Source: Capsulimonadaceae bacterium
Lineage (GTDB): Bacteria; Armatimonadota; Armatimonadia; Armatimonadales; Capsulimonadaceae
NCBI GenBank assembly: GCA_965215505.1
Contig: OZ244065.1
Coordinates: 2,496,001-2,560,000 of the forward strand
Length of the DNA stretch: 64,000 nt
Reading direction: 5' to 3'
The position numbers are program-made. Shown piece after piece: positions 34,201-37,200 of the stretch. The number at the start of each line of letters is the position of its first letter. Position 1 is the stretch's first letter.

Positions 34201-37200
34201 CGGCACCCGCCCCGGTACGCGCGGCGGACATCGTTCAGACGGCCACGAAGGCCGGACAGTTCAAGACCCTGGTCGCCGCCCTGAAGGCCGCCGGCCTGGT
34301 CGCGACCCTGAAGGGGGCTGGCCCGTTCACGGTCTTCGCCCCCACCGATGCCGCCTTCGCCAAGCTGCCCCCCGGCACCGTGGCGACCCTGCTGAAGCCG
34401 GCGAACAAGAAGACGCTGATCAAAATCCTCACCTACCACGTCATCGCCGGGGCGGCCGTGAGTGCCAAGCAGGCGATGGCGATGACGGATCCGACCTCCC
34501 CGCCCACCGTGGAAGGCGCGACCTTGCAGATCAAGACGGTCAACGGCAAGGTCATGGTCAACAACGCCACCGTCGTCAAGGCGGACGTCAAGGCCAGCAA
34601 CGGCGTCATCCACGTCATCAACACGGTCCTGATGCCGCCGAAGTAGCACGGTCCCCGCGCATCCTAAGCGCCGGACGGAAGAGCCGCCGGGGTCGTGTGA
34701 CCCCGGCGGCTCTTCCGCGTTGGCAGAGGCAGGCAAACAAAAAAGCCACCCGCGAGGGGTGGCTTTTTGCTTCTCTGGACAGTGCGCCCGGCGGGGCTCG
34801 AACCTGCGGCCTCTTAGTCCGCAACCAAGTGCTCTATCCACTGAGCTACGAGCGCGTACTTACCAGAAGTGGTCTTCAGCCATCAAACAGCCTTTGGTCT
34901 GGCTGTTTTTGGTTGGCTGATAGCGTATCGTAATTGCCGTCTTACGATGAAAGTGTTCTGACTCAAGCCAAACGATCTTGTCTATCTTCGGCAGGTAGAC
35001 CAGGAGGACGTCCACTTCCTGGGCCGTATAGAACTGGCTGCCGGCTTTGTTGCCGCGTGTGATCTTTCTCAGATTGAGGAAGACGACGCCTGATGCCTGA
35101 GAGCATTTGGCATCCGCGTACTTCACCTGCGCCCGGACAAGGCGCTCGCCGCAGTCCACAACAAGGTCGTAGCGGCAGTTTGCCATCGTCGGCTCGCTGA
35201 GGCTGATGTTCCGCTCCAGCGCAAGTTGCTTTACTTTGAGCATGGCGTATTCGCCCTTGCCGTTCGTGTCCATCCTTAGAACCTCCCAGCCTTATGACTT
35301 CCGAGGCGACGAGGAACATTATACCGAACCAAACGGGTCCTGTCAAGTGGCGGGGCGCGAAAATAATCGCGGAGAGGCATCGAATCGGAAGTGAACCCGT
35401 TGACATCAACTGCGTCCAATGCCATAATAGGGTTAGCAAGTCTCCGACTAGATTGGTCGGAGATAGGCACAGTTAGAGAAGGTCGCTCCAATGGCAGTCA
35501 GCATACAGCACAACAGCGTACAGACACGGTTCCGATACGCCCGGCCGGTCCTCATCGGCCTGGCCGCCCTGCTGGTCGTCGGGGTCCTGGCCTGGCAGGC
35601 GTTCACGGCGGGCATGACGCCCGATCCAACGGTCAAGGGCCTGAGTCCTGCCGCCATGATCGTCAGTACCGGCATCCTGGTCTTCCGGGAGGGGCTGGAG
35701 GCGATCCTCGTCCTGGCCGCAGTGACGGCGGGCATGGCACGGGGCGCACAGAGCGCCGCACTGCGAGCCGTCCCGGTGGGCGGGACGGCGGCGTTCCTCG
35801 CGACGGTCGCCACCTGGTTTGCGGTCGTGGCGGTCATCGCCCATGTCAACGCGCCGGAGTACGCCGTGCAGGCGGCGACCGGGCTGTTGGCGATCGCGGT
35901 GCTGCTGGTCGTTATGAACTGGTTCTTCCACAAGTTCTACTGGACCGGATGGATCGCTAATCACAGCAACCGGCGCAAGCAGATCATGGACTCGGCGGCC
36001 TCGGGCACGGCGGGGACATTTTGGGGTCTGGCCCTGTTGGGCTTCACGGCGATCTATCGGGAGGGATTCGAGGTCGTCCTGTTCCTGCAAGACCTGCGGC
36101 TTCGGGCCGGGAACGTCATTGTCGCCGAGGGCATGGCGGTCGGGCTTGTGCTGACCTTGATAGTCGCCGTGCTGACCTTCATCGCCCATAAGAAGCTGCC
36201 GTACAAGAAGATGCTCGTCGTGACGGGCGTCCTGCTGGGTATCGTCCTGCTCATCATGGTCGGGGAGAGCGTCCAGGAGATGCAGCAGGCCGGGTGGATC
36301 GCGACCACGGGCATCGGTTTCACGCTGCCGGGCTGGCTAGGGCTGTGGTTTTCGGTCTTCCCGAATGTGCAGAGTCTGGCGGCGCAGGCCCTGGCGGCGG
36401 CCATCGTGGTCGGCTCCTATCTCTCCGTGCCGTATGTCCGCGCCCGTGGCCGAAGCATGGCAGCGGCGTGACGCTCGCGGTGGGATTGCGGGCTGGGCTG
36501 AGGCTTGAAGCGGTTTCAATCGCCTGGATGGTGGTTGAGGCTTCTATATCGGTCGGGGCCGGCGTAGCCGCCGGGAGCCTGCTCCTAGCGGCGTTCGGCG
36601 TGGACAGCGTGATCGAGGTGATCTCGGCATCCCTGCTGTTCTGGCGTTTGCGCCGGGAGGCGGCGGGGCTGCTTCCTGGCGAAGAAGCCGTGGGGGCTAT
36701 GGAGCGGAGGGTTTCACGCGCCTCCGGGCTTCTGCTGTACGCCCTGAGCCTGTGTGTGACGATCATGGCTGTTTATGGCCTGACGCACCGGCATCGAGCA
36801 GGAACGTCTTGGCTAGGCATCGGTGTTGCTCTGATAGCCGGGTTCGGGATGCCCGTGCTGGCGAAGGCGAAAATCCGTGTCGCGGACGCTATCGGCAGCC
36901 GCGCCTTGCGGGCGGACGCGGTGGAGACGTTCACCTGCGGTTACCTGTCCTGGGCTTTGCTCGCGGGGCTTGCGGCGAATGCGGCCCTTCACTGGTGGTG
37001 GCTGGATGGTGCCGCCGCCCTGGCGATCGTCCCTCTCCTTGCCAAAGAAGGAAGAGAGGCCATGACCGGCGAATGTGGCTGTCACGGCGAATGAATTGAC
37101 TGCACGACTATGACAAAGCCTGATGAACAATTGAAGCGCACACCATCGCTGTTGTGCCGCTGGTACGCCTCGCAGAAGGCGTCGCGGCTGGCGGCCGAGG

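Follow-up and report, generated by a model that had tools for sequence, protein, structure and literature searches.

The tRNA-Arg(GCG) gene described here raises the question of how the CGN codons for arginine are read in a bacterium whose genome appears to encode neither tRNA-Arg(ACG) nor the adenosine deaminase TadA. TadA is indispensable to E. coli, and the pair formed by tRNA-Arg(ICG) and TadA counts as an almost universal feature of bacteria; those lineages that have dropped this pair reveal what is required for doing so. The gene lies in a stretch of 64,000 nucleotides from a Capsulimonadaceae bacterium of the phylum Armatimonadota, which is referred to below as the window. The genome under study (GCA_965215505.1) is denoted G000, and other G and f codes stand for genomes and families of the phylum.

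We propose that the CGN box of this organism is very probably decoded without inosine, and that this state was derived by loss from the usual bacterial one with ACG and TadA. In this scheme, tRNA-Arg(GCG) would read CGC and CGU, tRNA-Arg(UCG) would read CGA and perhaps CGG too, and tRNA-Arg(CCG) would read CGG. With no A34 tRNA left, TadA would be without a substrate and its gene would have gone.

The tRNA-Arg(GCG) gene and the arginine tRNAs of the genome

The window holds two tRNA genes according to ARAGORN, one of which is followed by a hairpin:

34782..34855, minus strand: tRNA-Arg with anticodon GCG (G34), identified by ARAGORN, Rfam RF00005 and sequence
34735..34763, minus strand: hairpin GCCACCC-loop-GGGUGGC and then UUUUUUGUUUG, directly 3' of tRNA-Arg(GCG), identified by its fold
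22854-22936: tRNA-Leu(CAA), the other tRNA of the window, identified by ARAGORN

The tRNA-Arg(GCG) gene scores 62.2 bits with Rfam RF00005 (G000:C1:2530783-2530855) against a gathering score of 29, and it folds into a normal cloverleaf, with CCA not encoded. Its anticodon loop is UUGCGGA, with G34, C35 and G36 present, and its D-loop (GGAUA / AGUGGAUA) carries an A after the GG, that is, A20. Work in E. coli has established A20 and C35 as identity elements for arginyl-tRNA synthetase. Both columns are invariant in our tRNA alignment (A1), and the window gene, which possesses both residues, is predicted to be an arginine tRNA. It is expected to pair with CGC in Watson-Crick fashion and with CGU by G-U wobble. 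The same gene, 92-96% identical and with GCG kept, is present in five genomes of the genus, and the GCG anticodon is common to 56 distinct genes of relatives.

The segment containing the 3' hairpin (34728-34781, minus strand) folds with -25.6 kcal/mol and a z of -4.60, and none of 200 shuffles was as good. A scanner for consensus promoters and terminators returned neither between 34500 and 35200. The hairpin and its U-run are likely an intrinsic terminator, which may act in both directions. Three RNA libraries were also examined as contigs; they contain 4-7% of the sampled words, and uncovered parts carry no meaning. Of these, X22 spans 34781-34868 with a contig from a close relative and covers the tRNA at a word depth of 2632. 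Its tRNA shows a compensatory 31:39 change with the anticodon unchanged, and we take this cover as only a hint of transcription. The cover of X20 and X21 is limited to the gene neighbouring tRNA-Arg(GCG).

The G000 assembly is a single contig of 6,177,771 bases, 96% complete and called closed. ARAGORN made 63 tRNA calls and found one tmRNA, and A34 is present in none of the 63. The arginine tRNAs have the anticodons UCU, UCG, GCG (twice, in the window and at 2219562), CCG and CCU. The UCG tRNA, a reader of CGA other than I34, is found at contig positions 1847855-1847927 and scores 68.3 bits in Rfam. Rfam returned 59 tRNA matches, which add to the ARAGORN set only three long tRNA-like loci, none of them with an A34 anticodon. 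An ARAGORN 'CCG' call of 92 nt at 3525896 was taken as false because it has no counterpart among the 59 Rfam matches. The intron mode of ARAGORN, with 129 calls, proposed an Arg(acg) at 5976791 with a 243-nt 'intron', coding-like by eye, and a Leu(taa) at 3589077 with a 253-nt 'intron'; both were rejected, neither having an Rfam tRNA or group I intron match. The survey's finding that the genome has tRNA-Arg with GCG, UCG and CCG, and no tRNA with A34, is hence borne out by two independent tRNA finders. From these sequences we infer that the tRNA carries G34 and that inosine is absent in G000.

Arginine codon use was counted in 3226 long ORFs picked by third-position G+C, a rough gene set, in this genome of 66.5% G+C:

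CGC: 46% of arginine codons, the commonest, 33 per 1000 codons
CGG: 35% of arginine codons
CGU: 6.7% of arginine codons
AGG: 5.8% of arginine codons
CGA: 4.7% of arginine codons
AGA: 2.2% of arginine codons

The commonest arginine codon is one that pairs with a G34 tRNA in Watson-Crick geometry.

Absence of TadA and the two small deaminases

The TadA model NF008113 has a curated cut-off of 150 bits. Since only 6 of 14 control genomes pass this value, we used as the divide a gap in the scores themselves, which are bimodal over 201 genomes of the phylum: 24 genomes reach 116-177 bits and the next best stands at 84. The best proteins of G000 score 56.0 and 55.8 bits, well short of the range of the phylum TadAs, and the Pfam deaminase domain retrieves five deaminase-fold ORFs in the entire genome. 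At an E value of 1e-30, a TadA match was found in none of the 71 genomes of the class to which G000 belongs (families f1 and f2). The same search in the controls gave a match in 8 of 14 and none in Thermotoga or Thermus.

Two small ORFs of G000 deserve closer attention:

P1, contig 867464-867997: 178 aa, with the motifs HAD and PCLMC
P2, contig 3914863-3915423: 187 aa, with the motifs HAE and PCVMC

One of these proteins might be a very divergent TadA, an A34 tRNA having been missed by the tRNA finders. For both P1 and P2 the best NCBIfam match is the TadA model and the best solved relatives are TadAs, at only 50-63 bits, and P2 retains HAE and PCVMC. A true TadA of the phylum, however, scores 140-155 bits against solved TadAs, including the entries 1z3a (E. 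coli) and 2b3j (S. aureus). Behind the second zinc motif, the stretch D-x-K-A-G-A-x-G (KAGA-GS) is invariant in five aligned TadAs of the phylum (alignment A2); judged by eye, it is not seen in P1 or P2, which have unrelated sequence at this place. P1 has HAD rather than HAE, as well as PCLMC, and its orthologue in G112 shares both motifs. Orthologues of P1 are present in only 4 of the 201 genomes, one of them (67%) in G059, which bears TadA. The relatives of P2, 45-59% identical, make up the N-terminal portion of longer ORFs (about 400 aa) in nine f5 genomes, and TadA is also present in eight of these nine. Because their relatives coexist with true TadA, we regard P1 and P2 as paralogues and not as a disguised TadA. 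Together with the score of 56 bits against 116-177 for real TadAs, and with no A34 tRNA in the results of either of two independent finders on a closed genome, this makes it extremely improbable that inosine is still made by such an enzyme. A further group of phylum proteins at about 80 bits to the TadA model scores 134 bits against 7dbf, guanosine/guanine deaminase-like.

The earlier claim that G000 has no TadA orthologue is thus upheld, and the attached concern over a divergent deaminase is mostly removed by the relatives of P1 and P2 that occur beside true TadA, although the best solved relatives of both are still TadAs. Taken together, the genome has no tadA and no tRNA-Arg(ACG) and does have tRNA-Arg(GCG), which is the gene content of TadA-less G34 decoding. 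As a comparison, the standard system of tRNA-Arg(ICG) and homodimeric TadA is found in five families of the phylum, whereas G000 is without both the enzyme and the A34 tRNA.

TadA, ACG and GCG across the phylum

TadA is found in 16 of 18 genomes of f5, in all four of f10, in both of f29 and in single genomes of f36 and f40. tRNA-Arg(ACG) occurs in all five of these TadA families: in 18 of 18 f5 genomes, a count obtained with an f5 ACG tRNA as query, in 4 of 4 of f10, in 2 of 2 of f29 and in the one genome each of f36 and f40. The two f5 genomes with ACG and without a TadA match are G019 (95% complete) and G161 (89% complete).

Among the best 30 matches of the window tRNA, 27 have GCG, one UCG and one CCG, and one is cut at a contig end; 20 further tRNA regions comprise 15 with GCG, three with CCG, one with UCG and one with UCU. 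Hence 42 of the 50 best BLAST loci carry GCG and none carries ACG. When 14 TadA-less genomes were searched with a covariance model built from 21 GCG and 7 ACG tRNAs, 12 gave GCG and none gave ACG. GCG was seen in none of the six TadA-bearing genomes searched, and no genome with both ACG and GCG was seen among those examined. At the family level, 33 of the 35 without TadA have a verified GCG tRNA; none was found in f12 and f33, both fragmented assemblies (G010, 580 contigs; G074, 88% complete). These counts agree with the survey's finding that most of the phylum is without TadA and has GCG. A minority of families does keep tadA and ACG, as had been stated, but their number is five (f5, f10, f29, f36 and f40) and not four.

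tRNA-Arg(UCG) is present in G000 and in 13 of the 14 TadA-less genomes searched, and in G074 we saw UCG and CCG but not GCG. Both observations would fit a different scheme, in which tRNA-Arg(UCG) with an unmodified U34 reads CGU and CGC by four-way wobble, a mechanism suggested for Mycoplasma haemofelis, and GCG is not required. We consider this scheme highly unlikely, since 33 of 35 TadA-less families retain GCG and its loop is conserved, CGC is the commonest arginine codon at 33 per 1000 codons, and the RNA contig of the close relative covers the tRNA at depth with its anticodon intact, the last point being a hint of transcription only. In the scheme that we prefer, with CGC and CGU assigned to tRNA-Arg(GCG), the UCG tRNA would serve CGA and perhaps CGG. 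UCG is already present in the TadA-bearing families f10, f29, f36 and f40.

The genomic surroundings of tadA are conserved as well. Arg(CCG)-Arg(CCU) precedes it in 21 of its 24 loci, with examples in all five families. Nine of the 24 loci have ACG no more than 1.5 kb from tadA, the two being close only in f10 and part of f5. The order in f5 and f10 is Ser(GCU)-Arg(ACG)-Arg(CCG)-Arg(CCU)-tadA, while f29, f36 and f40 have Arg(CCG)-Arg(CCU)-tadA-Ser(CGA)-Ser(GGA), as in G092 (CCG-CCU-tadA-Ser(CGA)-Ser(GGA)), and Ser(GCU)-Arg(ACG) elsewhere. The reported position of tadA next to Arg(ACG) therefore applies to f10 and part of f5; it does not apply to f29, f36 and f40, where ACG sits beside Ser(GCU) at another place.

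The same cluster can be recognized in genomes without TadA. In G167 and G041 the order is Ser(GCU)-CCG-GCG-CCU-Ser(CGA)-Ser(GGA), and the place expected for tadA is taken up by 43 and 65 nt, respectively; G128 has Ser(GCU)-GCG-CCG-CCU, and many other TadA-less genomes have GCG-CCU-Ser(CGA) or Ser(GCU)-GCG. In G000, 32 nt separate Arg(CCU) from Ser(CGA). The 1-kb gap between these two genes in G127 contains small ORFs only and no deaminase remnant. Outside the phylum, tRNAs of the same cluster lie within 1.5 kb of tadA in 28 of 80 loci, with Arg(ACG) upstream in 8 of the 80 and Ser(CGA) downstream in 19. This tadA-in-cluster layout in other phyla is a new observation. As the tadA-bearing cluster is old, being also found in other phyla, loss within the phylum is favoured. 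The ancestral cluster would have been Ser(GCU)-Arg(ACG)-Arg(CCG)-Arg(CCU)-tadA-Ser(CGA)-Ser(GGA), from which tadA would have been cleanly removed between Arg(CCU) and Ser(CGA), and in which a GCG gene would have taken the place of the ACG gene.

Number, direction and setting of the changes

A tree of RpoB, a single gene and unrooted, was built from 61 genomes of 39 families (f35 is absent), and its topology is identical with FastTree and IQ-TREE. The TadA families fall in one subtree, interleaved with GCG families. The pair of f29 and f36 is sister to f14, f24, f32 and f20, and the sister of the pair of f40 and f5 is a group whose earliest branch is f17, with f10 and f31 as a pair beside it. 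At least three changes of TadA state are needed on this tree, and a history of losses only takes at least four. A constraint that keeps the TadA rows together lowers the log-likelihood by 247.6 units (p-AU 0.00026). The RpoB tree thus rejects the TadA families as one group, a result that is new here, and the switch probably consisted of several events. The survey had placed the switch inside the phylum; both states do occur within it, but a single switch is not what the tree, with its three or more changes, indicates.

Concerning direction, parsimony and synteny lead us to infer loss. Another history is that the ancestor was without TadA and had GCG, and that the five families regained a tRNA-tadA cassette horizontally, once or several times. 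Three gains are in fact the fewest changes on the RpoB tree, against at least four for losses only. A TadA gene tree that included 80 named TadAs from other phyla places the phylum TadAs at five points among them. The f36 TadA, moreover, is up to 64% identical to TadAs of other phyla, close to its 65% to f29, and only 45-53% identical to those of f5, f10 and f40. However, the backbone of the TadA tree is poorly resolved, 49 of its 101 branches being open, and its well-supported branches force only two changes, a resolution too poor for a test of vertical descent versus transfer, and the tree was set aside for this purpose. Regain is also at variance with the shared place of tadA, behind Arg(CCG)-Arg(CCU) in 21 of its 24 loci and in all five families, with the retention of the same cluster in TadA-less genomes, and with the placement of TadA at the bacterial root in parts of Diwan and Agashe (PMC6063277). 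We therefore regard regain as unlikely, though a history to be reckoned with, and retain loss as the preferred direction.

The GCG tRNAs themselves are of two kinds, whose existence is reported here for the first time. The 56 distinct genes divide into 48 with a UUGCGGA loop and 8 with CUGCGGA. The former kind belongs to the all-GCG clades, G000 among them, and the latter is found in f14, f20, f24, f32, f17, f31, f16 and f3. Outside the anticodon, the CUGCGGA genes are 81-93% identical to tRNA-Arg(CCG), compared with 73-84% to ACG, and this closeness suggests that they descend from a CCG duplicate in which C34 was changed to G. The origin of the commoner UUGCGGA kind is ambiguous.

Combining these lines, TadA and ACG would have been abandoned several times independently within a single phylum, whose members are free-living and have large genomes, starting from an ancient tRNA-tadA cluster and following two routes to a replacement tRNA, one with the old U32 type and one with a C32 type that resembles a CCG duplicate with C34 changed to G. 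To this scenario as a whole we give an even chance. Under the reading with several losses, the TadA-bearing and UCG-carrying families f10, f29, f36 and f40 would represent a permissive intermediate state. If it is true, the phylum is a natural experiment on how an enzyme essential in E. coli turns dispensable. The phylum holds close relatives with and without TadA that share the same gene cluster, so the order of the steps, beginning with UCG, continuing with GCG and ending with the loss of ACG and tadA, can be tested. A codon-adaptation model or annotation pipeline in which I34 is presupposed for arginine in bacteria would go wrong in most of the phylum.

TadA-less decoding with GCG is itself already in print for Mollicutes, Thermotogae, Spirochaetes and others, and the gain here is therefore one of detail and not of principle; the present analysis adds the conservation of the tRNA-tadA cluster, a loss that probably recurred, and two routes to the replacement tRNA. 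The literature searched, supplementary tables being outside its scope, held no paper tying the phylum to TadA or tRNA-Arg(GCG), and 'Armatimonad' is absent from the main text of PMC6063277.

For Mollicutes, sections of Yokobori et al. 2013 (PMC3711424) describe the loss of tadA and the replacement of ACG by GCG, together with the presence of UCG, and propose a stepwise evolution in which UCG was gained before ACG changed. The genome studied here resembles the TadA-less Mollicutes described there (the Pneumoniae group and M. pulmonis) in having no tadA, GCG in place of ACG, and UCG. In contrast, those organisms are presented in the same sections (PMC3711424) as parasites with reduced low-GC genomes and without tRNA-Arg(CCG), whereas G000 has 6.2 Mb, 66.5% G+C and has kept CCG. 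Their GCG tRNA is thought, in that account (PMC3711424), to be an A34-to-G mutant of ACG, while one of the GCG kinds in the present phylum resembles a mutated copy of CCG.

According to portions of Ehrlich et al. 2021 (PMC8007984), every sequenced member of the Thermotogae and Spirochaetes carries GCG in place of ACG, and portions of Diwan and Agashe 2018 (PMC6063277) reconstruct TadA at the bacterial root and several losses coupled to the loss of ACG and to the presence of non-target tRNAs. For the loss of TadA in Spirochaetes, a GC shift is no explanation according to this literature (PMC8007984, PMC6063277). As in these groups and others (same passages of PMC8007984 and PMC6063277), TadA and ACG are absent from G000 and the non-target GCG is present; there, however, this state is said to be fixed throughout a phylum or class, and here both states are interleaved within one phylum.

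A further parallel is found outside the bacteria. In archaea, the CGN codons that end in a pyrimidine are read by G34 and not by I34. G000 would share this G34 reading; unlike archaea, it is a bacterium whose state was probably derived within its phylum. An A34-specific deaminase is not known in archaea, as stated in a part of PMC8007984. Also unlike the archaeal system, the tRNA of G000 is bacterial in type and lies in a bacterial tRNA cluster.

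TadA-like deaminases of the phylum

Two deaminase ORFs of the Capsulimonadaceae genome (G000, contig C1), P1 and P2, resemble TadA and are taken as paralogues. The catalytic His-Ala-Glu of P1 is replaced by His-Ala-Asp, a change also present in its orthologue from the relative G112 (72% identical). P1 has few orthologues: of the 201 genomes of the phylum, just 4, belonging to three families, carry one. The P2-type domain is free-standing in families f1, f2 and f8; in family f5, where its identity is 45-59%, it makes up the N-terminal region of longer ORFs (about 400 amino acids), in the two genomes listed below and in further ones. 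A 169-aa deaminase of G187 (family f21) scores 81 bits to the TadA model (NF008113) and carries the motifs HAE and PCPMC as well as a TadA-like FGAFDYRAGA stretch. The genome that encodes it carries Ser(GCU)-Arg(GCG) and lacks an ACG tRNA. The protein is possibly a vestige of TadA or a TadA that has taken on another role.

TadA-like deaminases
G000:C1:867464-867997 (L001:1306-1842), minus strand: P1, small TadA-like deaminase
G125:C19:68744-69250: P2-type domain, f5
G046:C1:1259515-1260018: P2-type domain, f5
L039:1429-1938, minus strand: 169-aa deaminase of G187

Among families that retain TadA, the f5 genome G003 has two full matches on one contig, about 3 kb apart (G003:C273:8179-8667 and 11998-12459; 169 and 175 bits). 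In several other phyla, namely Myxococcota, Pseudomonadota, Planctomycetota, Bacillota and Acidobacteriota, tadA is flanked by its substrate gene tRNA-Arg(ACG) and by tRNA-Ser(CGA) or Ser(GGA), as at the loci L300, L321, L339, L342, L306 and others. Of 80 tadA loci of other phyla, 28 have tRNAs within 1.5 kb of the gene. No mention of the layout was found in the passages of the literature that were consulted.

tRNA-Arg(GCG) and tRNA-like genes

In RNA-library run X22, a metatranscriptome contig from a closely related organism spans the window's tRNA-Arg(GCG) (34781-34868) at a very high word depth, 2632. Two changes in this contig jointly replace G-C by U-A at the 31:39 pair; the anticodon is the same. 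A second, divergent tRNA-Arg(GCG) gene of G000, with an encoded CCA and the loop CUGCGAC, lies in a six-tRNA array that adjoins a gene for RNA 3'-phosphate cyclase and a 210-aa ORF whose sole domains are EF-G domain IV and the EF-G C-terminal domain.

Elsewhere in G000, all outside the window, are tRNA-like genes, four in tandem and two single, in which the acceptor, D and T arms are intact and the normal anticodon arm is replaced by a 28-100 nt insertion. Three of them pass the Rfam tRNA threshold, at 38.8-44.5 bits; both single genes are called 'Arg(gcg)' with a 49-nt intron by ARAGORN in intron mode.

tRNA and tRNA-like genes
G000:C1:2219562-2221409 (L006:3563-5410): array of Arg(GCG), Asn, Met, Gly, Phe, Lys
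G000:C1:1684958-1685854 (L005:959-1855): four tRNA-like genes with insertion, in a row
G000:C1:4778534-4778657: single tRNA-like gene with insertion (ARAGORN intron mode)
G000:C1:1210607-1210733: single tRNA-like gene with insertion (ARAGORN intron mode)

Decoding of Leu and Ile codons

Neither ARAGORN nor Rfam found a tRNA-Leu(UAA) in the whole G000 genome, yet in the rough gene set about 1.15 of every 1000 codons are TTA. In the tRNA set from these two programs Leu(CAA) is the sole reader available for UUR codons. G000 encodes both a tRNA-Ile(UAU) and a full TilS, and two modes of reading AUA may therefore exist.

Genes for AUA decoding
G000:C1:5948263-5948339: tRNA-Ile(UAU)
G000:C1:1472383-1472943: TilS, full (173.5 bits)
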